Below are positions 47,354 through 53,297 of a stretch of 64,000 bases of DNA, piece after piece. A model generated the notes under the pieces. The model ran no database searches and was not told the DNA's origin. It worked only from the letters and a program-made list of their open reading frames with translations. How positions within the stretch are numbered: the stretch's first letter is position 1; every line of letters begins with the position of its first letter. A program made the position numbers and the translations under genes. The stretch comes from a virus. Its lineage: Duplodnaviria; Caudoviricetes. The DNA is taken from positions 96,001 through 160,000 of IMG/VR virus record IMGVR_UViG_3300038679_000357. The stretch is one strand, 5' to 3'.

Positions 47354-49591
47354 TTACTTGGGAGGCGGTGTTCTAACCTGATCAGCTCTCGTGACTACGT
47401 TTGGATCTGGAAGATCCTGTGTTGGCTCTGCACCTCCGACATCGTTCGCGGCATTTTTCACATCCTCATCATTAAGTCGAATGTTATCTTTACCGGGATC
47501 AGAAAAGTTTCCAGCGTTCTCATCTTCATCCGATAACTTAATTTTTTCATCCTCATCAATCCTACTAACAAGAACCCTCAATGAATCAGCCACGCCTATA
47601 CCACAACAGAAAGCATAAAAATAGCTACCCTGAGTAGCGTTTCCACCTGGATTATCAATAACAGCCTGGACTGAGTCCATAATGAGAGGAACAGGAAGAT
47701 TAGGGAGATCAGAAACCTTTGTTATGACCGGAGGACTACTCGACTTCTTTCCAGATATCCCAGGAACAGATGGTGGTTTTTGCGGCTGATATGGAGTATT
47801 GCTTCCCGCACCTTGAACAGCTTTAATCATTCTGTCTACAGCGATATCTCCAGCCTTCGTCGTAGAAAGAACCATTGCTTTGTTGGCGTTAGGATCTTCT
47901 ATATTTGGATCTATTGCATATTGATCTACATTTGTCTCAACATTCTTCAATTCTTCCTTCGAAACAGTATTCCCCCAAAAACCGCCAACGCCAATAATTG
48001 GATCTGGTTTTCCATCTCGAATGTAATACTTCGCAAGAAACGCCTCATCATTCTTGTTTTTCGCCCCGCCTTCTACTAGTTCATTCCATTTTGCTGCAAG
48101 TGCATTTGGAGAATTTTCAAAAACACTTAGTGCAGATGGATACTGGCTAAATATCAACTTCATAATTCCATTAGGGTCGTACAACTGCGAGGTAAACATC
48201 GTCTTGAATTTTTCATAAAAATCAATAAACATCTTACGTTTTACACTTGATGGAATTCTATTACCAGTGCTCGTTGAGGTTGACATTTCATCAATATCAG
48301 ACGTCTCAATCCCGGCATCCCTCAGCTTTCCCTTAAATGAATTGAAAAAACGATCGCCAATCATATTTACGGCTGTCGCTGAAGCAATTTTTGACGCAGC
48401 TCGACGCGAGCCCTTCAACAACGTCTCAATAAAACTCTTGTAACTCTCATCTACTCGAACAATACCATACAAGCAACACCCAATAACAAACGCAGCTCCA
48501 GACCTACCAATTGCCTGAGCATCCGTAGATGGATCATAAACCTTATTTGGCTTCAGTTTTTTCTTGCTTACATAACTCTGATACGTTACCGTATCGAAGG
48601 ACTCCTTAAACGCATCAATAATCGCGTTAGACGCCCCTTTTGCCAATGCTACAAAATCATCTGTATTTACGTTTGTATTAGAACTTAAATTGGTTACTAC
48701 ATCCTGTAGATTTTTGTCTAAGTATTTATTATATCCATCGGTTATATTATTCAAAATAACACTAGATACGTCACCTTGCTTATTTGCAGTAGCAGAAACA
48801 GACGCAGCTTGCAATAACTCTTTTTCCTTATTTACAATTGCCGAGCTGTCAATTTTACTGCTCCCAATCGGATTTCCACTACCATCCTTGATTTCCGCCA
48901 TTTTTTCCATTAACAACACAAAAGCTTGAGACTCTCTCCAAGCAGAAACTACATCTGATCTTACTTTTTCCGAAATATCCATCAACGCAGCTTCACTTAT
49001 TGTTTTCAATAAATCAGAAAAATCGCTACCACTCTTAACCTGATGGATAAGCCCAATTAATCTAGCTACAAAAAACGCCTTACGAGACGGATCAATATTA
49101 CTTGGAATAAACCTTACTAGCTCTTCAAATTCAACGGCTTTATTTGCATTAGACCCCTTAAATAAATTCATCATCTTATTGACAAAAGCATCACTTAACG
49201 CAAGTGGTTCTTTAGAAACTAAATGAGCCAAACTAGAAACTACCGAAACAACTCTCATTTGAGCTTCATTTACGGCACTATCTTTCATCATCTCGTCCGC
49301 TATACTATTAAATATCGACGAAGATGGTTTATTCTCGGCAAGAGACGTTACAAGATTAAACAGATGTTCAGAATATAAATCGCCTAAAATAGACTGGTTC
49401 ATTTCAATATACTTGTAAACATCCCATATAGGATGTCCTTGAACCTGTCCAGACGCTTTTGTACATGCCTCATGGGCTTTTTTCTGAGCGTCAGCTAATG
49501 ACGCGAGAACCAACTTACGGGTAGTTAATTCAGCTACCGAGGATGGCAGTGTAGATATTCTCTTCCACCAACTTTTGTTCGAGCATGTCAA
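47354..49591 (-). CDS. Hypothetical helical protein (~745 aa, start uncertain), possibly an internal/ejected virion protein
   Basis: Long open frame between chaperones and TMP; the TTG start overlaps the upstream gene; no motif recognised. Confidence 0.55.
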   Translation of the reverse strand: MTCSNKSWWKRISTLPSSVAELTTRKLVLASLADAQKKAHEACTKASGQVQGHPIWDVYKYIEMNQSILGDLYSEHLFNLVTSLAENKPSSSIFNSIADEMMKDSAVNEAQMRVVSVVSSLAHLVSKEPLALSDAFVNKMMNLFKGSNANKAVEFEELVRFIPSNIDPSRKAFFVARLIGLIHQVKSGSDFSDLLKTISEAALMDISEKVRSDVVSAWRESQAFVLLMEKMAEIKDGSGNPIGSSKIDSSAIVNKEKELLQAASVSATANKQGDVSSVILNNITDGYNKYLDKNLQDVVTNLSSNTNVNTDDFVALAKGASNAIIDAFKESFDTVTYQSYVSKKKLKPNKVYDPSTDAQAIGRSGAAFVIGCCLYGIVRVDESYKSFIETLLKGSRRAASKIASATAVNMIGDRFFNSFKGKLRDAGIETSDIDEMSTSTSTGNRIPSSVKRKMFIDFYEKFKTMFTSQLYDPNGIMKLIFSQYPSALSVFENSPNALAAKWNELVEGGAKNKNDEAFLAKYYIRDGKPDPIIGVGGFWGNTVSKEELKNVETNVDQYAIDPNIEDPNANKAMVLSTTKAGDIAVDRMIKAVQGAGSNTPYQPQKPPSVPGISGKKSSSPPVITKVSDLPNLPVPLIMDSVQAVIDNPGGNATQGSYFYAFCCGIGVADSLRVLVSRIDEDEKIKLSDEDENAGNFSDPGKDNIRLNDEDVKNAANDVGGAEPTQDLPDPNVVTRADQVRTPPPK

Positions 49592-50008: not shown

Positions 50009-50230
50009 TTATCTCCTTACTTTCTTTTTAGTTGAAGATCCGATAACTTTTTTCCCAGGATCTGCGTCAGCCATATTTTCTCCCATTGCCTCTGCGGCAG
50101 CTTCCACCTGCGCCCTGGCGTTCATAACGGTGAATATCTGCTGCATCTTCACGTGAGAAATTGCATCAATTTGATTTGGAGTCCATCCAAATTTCTCCAT
50201 AAACAACAACTCTAAAACTTCATCCGGCAT
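50009..50230 (-). CDS. C-terminal part of the frameshifted tail assembly chaperone (lambda gpGT-like)
   Basis: In the -1 frame relative to 50290..50742, open from the slippery site to TAA at 50009; LFMEKFGWTPNQID is typical of gpT-like domains. Confidence 0.8.
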   Translation of the reverse strand: MPDEVLELLFMEKFGWTPNQIDAISHVKMQQIFTVMNARAQVEAAAEAMGENMADADPGKKVIGSSTKKKVRR

Positions 50231-50289
50231 TTTCCTCTCGGACCCACCATTCCCATTTTTTTGAGAACTGAAGTATAGATGAGCCGAGA

Positions 50290-50742
50290 CTAGGAGTTTT
50301 TTTCCATCTCCGGCGACATATCGCCTTCTTCATCGTACAGTTTAAGAAGCAACTCGGCAACGACTGGATTAAGAGATCTTATGGTTTTTTCATCTGGCTT
50401 TGTCTTGACCCTTTCCCCCTCACTATTAACCCTCATAAAATCCCACTCAATCAAAACGGCGCACAATTTTTTAAATTCATGTTCGTAGGTATCAAGGTAT
50501 TTCATCATGCTCTCAGGATCATTCTTAATGCATTCTTTCGTAATCCTGGTATACTCACCCCATGTCAGCATCTTAAACTTTACAGTATGAAGAGAAAATC
50601 CCTTTCCCTCCAACTTAGCGATAGCTTCTTTCGTTCTTTTTGCATCAGGCAAAGATGGTACTTTTACCGCATCAACCTTCTTTGAGTCATATACTTTTGC
50701 GTAAAAACTCTTCTCAAAAAAACTATCATTATCAACAAACAT
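50290..50742 (-). CDS. Tail assembly chaperone (lambda gpG-like), 150 aa
   Basis: Lies between tube and TMP; ends ...GAA AAA AAC TCC TAG with an A-AAA-AAC heptamer. Confidence 0.8.
   Translation of the reverse strand: MFVDNDSFFEKSFYAKVYDSKKVDAVKVPSLPDAKRTKEAIAKLEGKGFSLHTVKFKMLTWGEYTRITKECIKNDPESMMKYLDTYEHEFKKLCAVLIEWDFMRVNSEGERVKTKPDEKTIRSLNPVVAELLLKLYDEEGDMSPEMEKNS
50296..50302 (-). promoter_or_regulatory. Programmed -1 ribosomal frameshift slippery site A AAA AAC
   Basis: X XXY YYZ heptamer in the correct phase, one sense codon (TCC) before the stop; the -1 frame joins the downstream ORF with no stop, giving a 244-aa fusion. Confidence 0.85.
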
Positions 50743-50782
50743 AAAAAACTCCGTTGTTATCCTATTTGATTATACAACGGAG
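50743..50782 (-). terminator. Hairpin (9-bp stem, 16-nt loop) plus U6, overlapping the promoter and RBS of the chaperone gene
   Basis: CTCCGTTGT-N16-ACAACGGAG-TTTTTT-ATG on the minus strand. Confidence 0.6.
50765..50780 (-). promoter_or_regulatory. Putative phage promoter CCGTTGTATAATCAAA
   Basis: Identical 16-mer at 63705..63720 (+); contains TATAAT; 22 nt upstream of ATG 50742. Confidence 0.7.
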
Positions 50783-50827
50783 AGCATATAGCTTTTGCTT
50801 GGATCAGCCATCAATTTTCGTGGCATC

Positions 50828-52264
50828 TCACCATCTGAATAGCACCACCTTCTTGTTTGTGCTCCATCTTTTGCAGATCGACAGGCAGAAGAAATGGTAC
50901 ATCCACCGATTAGGCTTTAAGCCCAAAAAGGCTATCACTAATACGGCGATAACGACCCACAGATGGAGGAATCCCTTCAGACCAACCATAATAACAAGGT
51001 AACACATAATGGAATGAAATAGGACAAAGAATTTTTTATTTGGCATGGTTATTTCCCACACATCTGCGTTGTACTTACCATAATAACGTCCACACGAATT
51101 CATGGTCGGAATATGCTGTGCCCCGACATGACCACGTATCTCACAGACTCCATCGATAACCAGCTCAAAAAAAGTGTAAAAGGCGACCATAGCGCCTAGT
51201 GGGATGAGCACAAACGCACCTGGACCTTCGTGGGCTGCGTAGGAGACGGCGATCAGAAAAAACGAAATGGGAGTCAGGAAATCCTTTGCCTGCACGTCAA
51301 AATAGAAGTGATCCTCTTTCTGACGGCGATGGGCTTCCTTAACAACGGCAACCTGATTCTCAACTGCCTGCCGCTCCGCTTCATCGCGGAACTTCTTTGC
51401 ACGCATAATGAGGAGCTTCATTTCCTGTTCATCACCATACATGTATTCGTCATGCGTGTAGATATATGGAACCGCGTCGTAATAACACGTCCAATCCGCT
51501 GTCGGCAGATATTCAAACACAGGATTCGCCTCGATCATCTGCCATTTCGGCTTGACGATGCCGTGATTCACATAGTTGGCACCAACAACGATATGGCGAC
51601 GACGAATGGTGTTTGCGTCATCATCCGGATGCAGATTTTCATAATCCATCAACGGCAGGCGTGACGGCGGAATGCTATTTTCACTCGCATTGATATACCA
51701 TGGGTACATCTCCACAATCCGACGATCGATCTCATTCAGATTCTCATACGGATCACGGTAATCGAGATTTGATGGCTCCTGATGCGAAAAAGAGAAGGAG
51801 CCTTGCTCTTCCTCGGATTGGTCAGAATCATTTGGCTTTCCGAAGAGAGTATCATGATTTTTGCTGAAGGTGGAAGGGTAAGCCGACTCAGCCTGCCTTG
51901 CATCGCTCGCATAACGGTAGTCGTTACGGGTACGGGTCATCACGGCGGCGGCGGCGATGTACATGACGTCATCCGAACTGGCGGTGATCATTGGGGCTCC
52001 ACTGCCAAAACCGTCAAATGCCTGGTTTCCCCGGATCTTGAACAGGGGGGAGCCGCCGCCATTGGTCGCATAGACGGTATCGCCGATGACGGTGCAGAGC
52101 GGGGTCCCAGACACGCAGTGTCCGAGGAAGACCATATTTCCGCTGATCGTACAAACTGGGTTGGAATAATCGCTGCGTCGGTACAGACAGTCTCCCTCCC
52201 CTACGAAAATTGGACTGCCGTAATCGTGCTCGACTCCGTAACCGCCAAATAGCTGAACTGACAT
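50828..52264 (-). CDS. Moron: membrane protein with N-terminal short beta repeats and ~4 C-terminal TM helices, 478 aa
   Basis: ATG 52264 with GGAG RBS (the longer ORF overlaps the tube gene); I.G..VY.G repeats; two hydrophobic hairpins; elevated GC in the 5' part. Confidence 0.7.
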   Translation of the reverse strand: MSVQLFGGYGVEHDYGSPIFVGEGDCLYRRSDYSNPVCTISGNMVFLGHCVSGTPLCTVIGDTVYATNGGGSPLFKIRGNQAFDGFGSGAPMITASSDDVMYIAAAAVMTRTRNDYRYASDARQAESAYPSTFSKNHDTLFGKPNDSDQSEEEQGSFSFSHQEPSNLDYRDPYENLNEIDRRIVEMYPWYINASENSIPPSRLPLMDYENLHPDDDANTIRRRHIVVGANYVNHGIVKPKWQMIEANPVFEYLPTADWTCYYDAVPYIYTHDEYMYGDEQEMKLLIMRAKKFRDEAERQAVENQVAVVKEAHRRQKEDHFYFDVQAKDFLTPISFFLIAVSYAAHEGPGAFVLIPLGAMVAFYTFFELVIDGVCEIRGHVGAQHIPTMNSCGRYYGKYNADVWEITMPNKKFFVLFHSIMCYLVIMVGLKGFLHLWVVIAVLVIAFLGLKPNRWMYHFFCLSICKRWSTNKKVVLFRW

Positions 52265-52286
52265 AGGTGACTCCTTGGTTAATGGA

Positions 52287-52314
52287 AATATAGCCTCAAC
52301 CAAGTAAAAGTCAA
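52287..52314 (-). promoter_or_regulatory. Sigma70-type promoter for the moron gene
   Basis: TTGACT-N16-TATATT, directly after the tube terminator and 22 nt before ATG 52264. Confidence 0.7.
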
Positions 52315-52326
52315 GTACATGAACAC

Positions 52327-52358
52327 AAAAAAGGAGAGGCGGCATATGCCGCCCCTCC
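52327..52358 (-). terminator. Rho-independent terminator after the tail tube gene
   Basis: GGAGGGGCGGC-ATAT-GCCGCCTCTCC-TTTTTT (11-bp stem including one G-U pair). Confidence 0.9.
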
Positions 52359-52379
52359 AGAAACCCCATCTCCAACAAA

Positions 52380-53297
52380 TTAGAGAACGAATTCGACGCG
52401 CCCTTTTCCATGGGTGGTAACACCCTTGAAATTGATCGTCGTAACGATAGGTCCAATCTGGGATTCTGCCGTTCCCCTTGCAAAACGGACTGCTGCATAA
52501 ACCCTGAAATTCGCACCGATATCGAAGCGAATTGGGTATGCGTAATCACCGTCGTATTCATCCCAGAAATTAGCACCTTTGCCAGGATCGCGACTTGACT
52601 GTATGCCACCATCGCCAGCATAGGATGTGATCGATCCTTCTACGTTCTTCATTCCCTCAACCAGATCTCCAAACAGATCCGACTGTCCAAGAACGAATTG
52701 ACGCTGGAGGTTGTTCGATGCAGTAAACTGGAATGCCTGCAACCCATCCATATAGTCAAGTGTTTCGTAGACTGAATTCCAGTCTGCGTCATCATCGCGT
52801 TTAAGAACTGGGCTACCACTATTCTGCAGAATGCGGAACGACGACTTGTCCCATGTGACAAGTTTTTCACCCTTCGTAAATCCAGTCATATCGACTGGGT
52901 CTACGTCAAGCAACTTTGTTCCCATGATGTCAAGTGTATAGTTGACGACTTCACCAGCAGTCACATTGAATGTGAATTGGTTTAATCTGCAACCAGCAAA
53001 CGCTCTAGTAAATCCATCGAAATACTTGACGTTAATTGTAACGCCATCCTCGTAATTAGCTTCGAGGTAGTCGATGAACTCGCCGGTACTCTCAGTAACG
53101 GGTCCGTTGATTGATCCAGCCACTTCGATTTTACCGAACGCCCACGCATTGTGGGTTTCGTCACCCATGACCATGTCAGGGGCTTCGATCTGCTGTTCGG
53201 CGTTCAAGGAGCATGTATTGAACCTGATCTTCAACTTCGTGAGATCAGGACTATCAATCTGTGCGTAGCCCCTGAATCCTGGTTTAATCATAGCCAT
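52380..53297 (-). CDS. Major tail tube protein, 305 aa
   Basis: GKIEVAGSING...FAGCRLNQFTFNVTAGEVVNYTLDIMG...FQFTASNNL...GMKNVEGSI matches the siphovirus-type tube pattern; GGAGG RBS; followed by chaperones and TMP. Confidence 0.85.
   Translation of the reverse strand: MAMIKPGFRGYAQIDSPDLTKLKIRFNTCSLNAEQQIEAPDMVMGDETHNAWAFGKIEVAGSINGPVTESTGEFIDYLEANYEDGVTINVKYFDGFTRAFAGCRLNQFTFNVTAGEVVNYTLDIMGTKLLDVDPVDMTGFTKGEKLVTWDKSSFRILQNSGSPVLKRDDDADWNSVYETLDYMDGLQAFQFTASNNLQRQFVLGQSDLFGDLVEGMKNVEGSITSYAGDGGIQSSRDPGKGANFWDEYDGDYAYPIRFDIGANFRVYAAVRFARGTAESQIGPIVTTINFKGVTTHGKGRVEFVL

Follow-up and report, generated by a model that had tools for sequence, protein, structure and literature searches.

A candidate promoter-embedded translational lock upstream of the tail assembly chaperone gene of an uncultured 255-kb groundwater phage

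A 40-nt hairpin element directly preceding the start codon of a tail assembly chaperone gene probably acts as a promoter-embedded translational lock that shields the tail operon of an uncultured phage from an inserted gene. Folding predictions bury the Shine–Dalgarno (SD) sequence of the chaperone gene on RNA reading through from upstream and leave it freer on RNA initiated at a promoter whose DNA overlaps the 5' strand of the same helix. The genome is a 255-kb viral record from a groundwater metagenome; unless given as genome positions, coordinates refer to the window, the 64,000-nt stretch that was analysed as a whole and corresponds to bases 96001–160000 of that record.

The region is read on the minus strand, where a tail tube gene, a terminator, a sigma70-type promoter, a 478-aa gene, an 85-nt spacer harboring the element and a 150-aa gene follow one another. 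The tail tube protein gene (52380..53297) matches PF18906 (E=1e-14) and phrog_290, and the intrinsic terminator downstream of it (52327..52358) is canonical, with an 11-bp GC-rich stem, a 4-nt loop and T6. The promoter TTGACT-N16-TATATT (52287..52314) is the best match in a consensus scan, and the SD of the 478-aa gene, AAGGAG, lies at 52276–52271. This intervening gene (50828..52264) encodes an N-terminal beta-flower-like repeat domain and C-terminal transmembrane segments, and its stop codon (50830–50828) precedes the hairpin's 5' arm by 46 nt. We detected no separate terminator between the intervening gene and the chaperone gene, the sole downstream candidate being the hairpin element itself.

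Judging from its sequence, the 150-aa gene is a gpG/GT-type tail assembly chaperone gene with a conserved −1 frameshift. The gpG/gpGT-type gene spans 50009..50742 on the minus strand, with the 150-aa open reading frame at 50742–50290 (ATG 50742–50740) and a slippery site, A_AAA_AAC, at 50302–50296. The −1 register is correct, and the resulting 244-aa product runs to 50009 and takes in the whole of the following 73-aa open reading frame. The GAAAAAAAC motif is kept at the end of the chaperone open reading frame in the related loci L002, L004, L006, L009 and L010, and the gene is flanked by the tube gene on one side and the large tail proteins and tape-measure region on the other. The in-register heptamer, the length of the frameshift product and the gene position agree with the sequence-only reading, which had identified the putatively locked gene as a chaperone gene. 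A 158-aa open reading frame in the same module is a weak chaperone paralog (profile HMM, E about 1e-4) and overlaps the start of a 745-aa open reading frame by ~60 nt (window 49530–49591).

The hairpin element occupies minus-strand positions 50782 to 50743 and abuts the ATG. Its 5' arm, CTCCGTTGT (50782–50774), was delineated from sequence and fold, and the last five bases of this arm are the first five of a promoter-like 10-mer. The greater part of the −10 hexamer falls within the 16-nt loop (50773–50758), as do the predicted start site and a 3-bp inner helix; the 3' arm, ACAACGGAG (50757–50749), carries the SD GGAG at 50752–50749. The T6 run (50748–50743) provides both the spacer between SD and ATG and a potential terminator U-tract, and continues in the RNA as AUGUUUG. 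The stem comprises 9 bp, including 5 GC pairs, with three of the four pairs at its base being G–C and U6 following directly 3'. Every part of the hairpin–T6–ATG arrangement that had been put forward from the letters alone was recovered between 50782 and 50740, as was the TATAAT hexamer (50774–50769) straddling the boundary between 5' arm and loop.

The 40-mer is predicted to fold with −14.0 kcal/mol, compared with a mean of −3.7 ± 1.7 kcal/mol for 200 dinucleotide shuffles, none of which folded as well (z −6.1). An RNA that starts at 50762, and so has no 5' arm, is predicted to be virtually free of structure (−4.1 kcal/mol, z −0.6), so that the comparison of long and short 5' ends came out as the sequence-only reading anticipated for a transcript beginning near 50762. 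Genome-wide, about seven distinct minus-strand elements combine a perfect 9-bp inverted repeat with a T-rich tail, whereas 0.3 are expected from shuffles, which argues that a hairpin followed by a T-tract is no chance feature. Four DNA sequencing runs yielded an identical sequence of the region with zero variants, and thus carry no covariation information.

In silico, the SD of the chaperone gene has a probability of being unpaired of 0.005–0.007 in read-through RNA, that is, it is predicted to be ~99% paired, which ranks seventh among the 218 genes of the genome. For promoter-initiated RNA of our phage, this probability rises to about 0.27, and the predicted unlocking is insensitive to the choice of start between +4 and +10 after the −10 hexamer. 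These values support the proposal that the SD is sequestered on read-through RNA and freer on promoter-initiated RNA.

The promoter-like 10-mer GTTGTATAAT (50769..50778, minus strand) contains the −10 hexamer TATAAT at 50774–50769 and has no −35 element. Sigma70-type geometry places the predicted transcription start at 50761..50763 on the minus strand, 6–8 nt after the −10 hexamer, at the bases A/G/G. The genome contains 12 exact copies of the 10-mer, compared with about 1.1 expected, and 11 of these lie on the main coding strand. The degenerate form GTTGTAnAAT, in which the variable base is position 3 of the hexamer, occurs 22 times against 3.7 expected, with a strong coding-strand bias and with many copies 19–50 nt 5' of an RBS and ATG. 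No −35 element is conserved for the 10-mer, either among the genome copies or among the family loci, where only T-richness is found upstream. We also asked whether GTTGTAnAAT sites throughout the genome generally occlude the RBS and rejected this, the mean change in SD accessibility being about that of the genomic background.

The motif is retained at the orthologous gene across the family. GTTGTA(T/C)AAT is found 23–50 nt 5' of the chaperone start in all ten of the closest genomes, despite a diverged spacer, and nnTGTAtAAT precedes the chaperone gene by 21–79 nt (all but one by 21–50 nt) in 42 of 50 unique family loci, a count that reaches down to about 30% tube protein identity. In all 42 loci, TG abuts TATAAT directly. 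Strong comparative evidence of this kind indicates that TGTAtAAT is a functional promoter word and an old fixture of the tail module. The initial assignment of TATAAT to a phage promoter is thereby substantiated by a recurrent 10-mer that is devoid of a −35 element and kept at the same gene.

The 10-mer resembles extended −10 (TGnTATAAT) promoters recognized by sigma70/sigmaA in its perfect TATAAT, its lack of a −35 element and its upstream TG, but differs from them in that no base separates TG from TATAAT, whereas one does in extended −10 promoters. The TGTAtAAT 8-mer does not vary among phages of many different environments, which hints at a phage-encoded specificity factor behind it. We examined the phage's own sigma factor as a reader of the 10-mer and found the assignment not supported, the protein matching sigma70 region 2 only. 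Literature searches for TGTATAAT returned incidental matches only.

Another copy of the 10-mer lies 5' of a clamp-loader (DNA_pol3_delta2) gene at genome positions 80066–80110 on the minus strand and is enclosed by UCUUCUUCG/CGAAGAAGG. The 3' arm CGAAGAAGG overlaps AAGGAG and yields a partial predicted lock, with the probability of the SD being unpaired going from 0.19 to 0.39. Because this copy precedes a clamp-loader gene, the 10-mer is not confined to structural genes, and the label 'late' for the promoter is unproven. At genome positions 193340–193381 on the minus strand, a GC-rich terminator with T5 is directly followed by GTTGTACAAT, an un-nested terminator-then-promoter layout that is also the one seen in relatives without the inserted gene.

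To place the element in a comparative framework, relatives had to be reached through the tube protein, which gave eight contigs and a further 80 loci; a chaperone HMM then placed the orthologous gene in about 60 loci. The chaperone protein itself has one relative in a large protein database (L002, 70% identity), and chaperone protein patterns retrieved no relatives from viral contigs or metagenome contigs. Searches of deposited phages gave no match, either for near-identical DNA or for the tube protein, the latter result indicating that there is no cultured relative. The tube profile detected only two distant loci in viral contigs and had no match in isolate or MAG genomes, which therefore offer no clue to the host.

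In 33 unique relatives, the tube and chaperone genes are adjacent and the order is tube gene, canonical terminator, promoter and chaperone gene, with no intervening gene. The probability of the SD being unpaired in these 33 genomes ranges from 0.02 to 0.83 (median 0.26) and is never below 0.02. A tight lock, defined as an SD unpaired with a probability of 0.007 or less, is predicted in six of the nine genomes that carry an intervening gene and in none of the 33 without one. The sequence-only reading had suggested that relatives without the inserted gene might lack the 5' arm, and they do. Its broader proposal, that the element insulates tail assembly from the inserted gene, gains in silico support from the same distribution.

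The six locked genomes form three unrelated helices, and every 5' arm lies upstream of the predicted start. Type A pairs CUCCGUUGU with ACAACGGAG in our phage and reaches 11–12 bp in L004 and L014, whose loops differ. Type B pairs UCUUCUCCA with UGGAGAAGA in L005, and type C, AAUCCU(C)/(G)AGGAUU, is formed by L007 and L010 and, in part, by L009. In a tube-protein tree, the seven genomes with a gene between tube and chaperone form one clade (support 92/92), within which the three helix types fall into three subclades. The insertion was probably a single event, since the seven carriers form one clade. The association between insertion and lock has a Fisher p of 1.6e-5, or 0.002 when collapsed to helix types; both values overstate independence given a single insertion, and phylogenetically the association is close to n=1. 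Turnover of the stem sequence with burial of the SD retained appears more telling than this association. When a locus is shuffled with its base composition, 10-mer and SD left intact, only 2.5–10% of trials give a tight lock. Exceptions exist: the clade members L009 (0.21) and L002 (0.37) are devoid of a tight lock, and L060, a distant relative with an independent insertion, has no lock (0.33).

Homologs of the intervening gene occupy the same position in L004, L014, L005, L007, L009 and L010; they are 15–38% identical to ours and likewise combine beta-flower-like repeats at the N-terminus with membrane segments at the C-terminus, and their matches to PF21786 fall below the curated cut-off. 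Common to the seven genomes is a layout comprising the tube stop codon, a GC-rich terminator, TTGAC(A/T)-N16/17-TAT(A/G)TT, AAGGAG and ATG. Morons, as defined by Hendrix and colleagues, are independently transcribed inserts between conserved late genes. The intervening gene behaves like one as far as its sequence goes: it has its own sigma70-type promoter, it separates genes that are adjacent in most relatives, and its G+C content is slightly above that of its surroundings. It departs from morons in being common to a whole clade, in having no clean terminator of its own and in being bounded downstream by the candidate lock/promoter element. The earlier description of a promoter-driven moron therefore stands with regard to the promoter, which is conserved, of the sigma70 type with a −35 element and located behind the tube terminator. 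The acquisition is not recent, since the whole clade has the gene; we view it as moron-like and old. Elsewhere in the tail module, a 354-aa gene is encoded on the opposite strand in two relatives (L008:7163-8227 (−) and L011:3704-4768 (−)), the L011 copy having a sub-threshold beta-flower match. Sequence comparison thus suggests that the beta-flower membrane-protein gene is a mobile accessory gene. Our search of the literature on insulation of morons by RBS hairpins retrieved no description of a tail operon insulated from a moron in this way.

We propose the following mechanism. Long RNA would originate at the sigma70-type promoter of the 478-aa gene and would run on toward the chaperone gene because no separate terminator lies between the two genes. 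On this long RNA, CUCCGUUGU would pair with ACAACGGAG and bury GGAG, so that 30S subunits would bind poorly, and some long transcripts may also terminate at the helix because U6 directly follows it. The 10-mer GTTGTATAAT, which overlaps the 5' arm, would fire about 7 nt downstream, inside the loop, and its transcripts, being without the 5' arm, would form neither lock nor terminator; their SD would lie free in an unstructured leader of 20 nt. Overall, the output of the chaperone and tape-measure genes would depend on the ancient promoter that belongs to them and not on how strongly the inserted gene is transcribed. What the computation shows is the structure, the recurrence of the motif, the conservation of the promoter and the confinement and sequence turnover of the lock; we infer where transcription starts, which of the two promoters fires when, how large the effects on translation and termination are, and which polymerase or sigma factor reads the 10-mer. 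Some results weigh against a lock: in our phage, the short-leader RNA is predicted to open to only about 27%, and the SD is occluded at other 10-mer copies to no greater degree than across the genome in general. Moreover, with spacers of 39–85 nt, almost any hairpin overlaps both promoter and SD, and the lock could be a by-product of a terminator or stabilizer hairpin.

This last point underlies an explanation we regard as unlikely though worth serious attention, namely that the hairpin is the intrinsic terminator or 3'-end stabilizer of the intervening gene and that SD sequestration is an unselected by-product of the short spacer. The element does share with Rho-independent terminators a GC-rich stem base, a direct U-tract and a location downstream of a stop codon: its 9-bp stem is immediately followed by U6 and then by more U-rich sequence, it belongs to the rare class of hairpins with a T-tail, it is the only terminator candidate between the two genes, and runs of at least five U also follow the hairpins of L014 and L010. 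Yet the stem has only 9 bp with 5 GC pairs, the 16-nt loop contrasts with the short loops (about 3–8 nt) of Rho-independent terminators, and a consensus terminator scan covering loops of 3–8 nt does not call the element. Its loop is the largest among T-tailed perfect 9-bp repeats, tied with one other. The intergenic terminators of the genome have ΔG values of −15 to −27 and loops of 4–6 nt and lie 42–76 nt before the next start, compared with which the −13 to −14 of the element is at the weak end. Among the well-formed terminator-like hairpins of the genome, it alone has a T-tract that directly adjoins a start codon, and this tract doubles as the SD-to-AUG spacer. A run of at least five U follows the lock in three of the six locked genomes (ours, L014 and L010), whereas L005 (AAGAGAG), L007 (UUCUAUU) and L004 (AUUUGCGUU) have no usable U-tract and all six nevertheless bury the SD. 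As the sequences turned over, pairing of the SD was preserved and the terminator tail was not. The original statement that read-through RNA is terminated or has its RBS sequestered consequently fares well for sequestration, and termination is the weakest leg of the model: some termination is plausible in our phage but is not the function that has been conserved.

The other explanations account for less of the comparative pattern. That the hairpin is a translational-coupling device, melted by ribosomes arriving from upstream, or a target of RNase III or RNase E, seems to us quite improbable. In L004, L005 and L007, the upstream stop codon lies about 10–15 nt before the 5' arm and a terminating ribosome could open the helix, but in our phage the distance of 46 nt is beyond the ribosome footprint, and coupling leaves unexplained why a conserved promoter lies in or beside the 5' arm. 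For processing, an Rfam search over 50300–52500 at E up to 1 gave no family match, and the region contains no processing motif. We consider it very improbable that the inverted repeat is a DNA operator on which a dimeric regulator would contact both 9-bp arms and repress the promoter. The repeat is perfect and brackets the −10 hexamer and the predicted start site; its arms, however, have a centre-to-centre distance of 25 bp, an unusual spacing for a dimeric operator; the genome contains just four exact copies of the arm word, none of them paired outside this locus; and three unrelated arm pairs across relatives, each including the SD, fit a constraint at the RNA level and not a site bound by protein on DNA. 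Equally disfavoured, and in our estimation just as improbable, is chance complementarity of no function between a promoter-constrained and an SD-constrained sequence. Both GTTGT and GGAG are subject to constraints of other kinds, 4% of shuffles give a tight lock at our locus, and random occurrence would yield about 20 perfect 9-bp inverted repeats in the genome; chance agrees poorly, though, with the z of −6.1 for the 40-mer, with arms perfectly kept and extended to 11–12 bp in L004 and L014 while the loops differ, and with two more subclades in which independent helices have the same predicted effect. On this balance, we retain the promoter-embedded translational lock as the preferred reading.

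Locks of this design have been described in phage T4. According to section 29 of PMC3014915, genes e, soc, 49 and I-TevI have a late promoter situated in the DNA for the 5' strand of the helix that sequesters the SD, and mobE of phage Aeh1 belongs to the same class (the same section, and PMC2655525 cited there). As in the T4 cases outlined in that section, the SD and/or the AUG would be buried in a helix on transcripts started upstream, and neighbouring genes of different transcription programmes would be kept apart in expression. The 10-mer promoter likewise overlaps the DNA of the 5' strand, and its predicted transcripts lack that strand. The analogy with e, soc and I-TevI drawn in the sequence-only reading appears apt with respect to mechanism, combining an SD helix with a promoter over its 5' strand, and our element probably joins the T4 e/soc/49/I-TevI class of promoter-embedded translational locks. 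Several differences set it apart from the T4 locks. The lineage is unrelated, our phage being an uncultured 255-kb groundwater phage with a PF18906-type tube gene that is not T4-like, and the promoter word is (G/T)(T/C)TGTAtAAT here and TATAAATA there. The locked gene would be the resident tail chaperone gene downstream of the insert rather than an inserted or lysis gene. U6 follows our helix, which may thus also be a terminator escaped by transcripts of the internal promoter. Finally, our element is known from sequence computation, unlike its T4 counterparts.

Two further sites in the genome carry predicted promoter-embedded locks. At window 52264–52314 on the minus strand, the SD AAGGAG of the intervening gene pairs with the spacer of TTGACT-N16-TATATT, and its predicted probability of being unpaired changes from 0.013 in read-through RNA to 0.50 in promoter-initiated RNA. 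We considered a 5' lock on the SD of the intervening gene as a trait of the family and rejected it, this arrangement being seen only in our phage and L014 and partly in L004. The other site, at genome positions 254150–254245 on the plus strand, consists of TTGACA-N16-TATATT with CTCCTTG in its spacer, and this CTCCTTG pairs with CAAGGAG, the SD that serves a 77-aa gene; here, at genome position 254240, the corresponding probabilities are 0.002 and 0.91. At both the 52264 and the 254240 locks, the promoter is of the sigma70 type and not the 10-mer, and the promoter spacer forms the 5' arm.

The general problem touched by these observations is how an inserted, independently transcribed gene is kept from upsetting the stoichiometry of a tail-assembly operon. 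Our data bring a classic T4 regulatory trick, in predicted form, to an unrelated lineage of huge environmental phages, and define a searchable comparative signature for other metagenomic phages: helices that vary, the same burial of the SD and a 5' arm upstream of the start of a conserved promoter. A conserved promoter word of 8–10 nt may also aid the annotation of transcription units in a family that has no cultured member. We entertain, tentatively and with the odds somewhat against it, a wider scenario in which TGTAtAAT serves a large and entirely uncultured phage family as its dedicated promoter word, read by a phage-encoded factor similar to T4 gp55. Once a separately promoted membrane-protein gene had been inserted between the tube terminator and this promoter, the descendants would have rebuilt promoter-embedded RBS locks repeatedly, and some of these, ours included, would have become terminators that transcripts of the internal promoter escape. 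If true, phages could be selected for, and could evolve, insulation of their late operons against inserted genes, and this trait would have a recognisable sequence signature.
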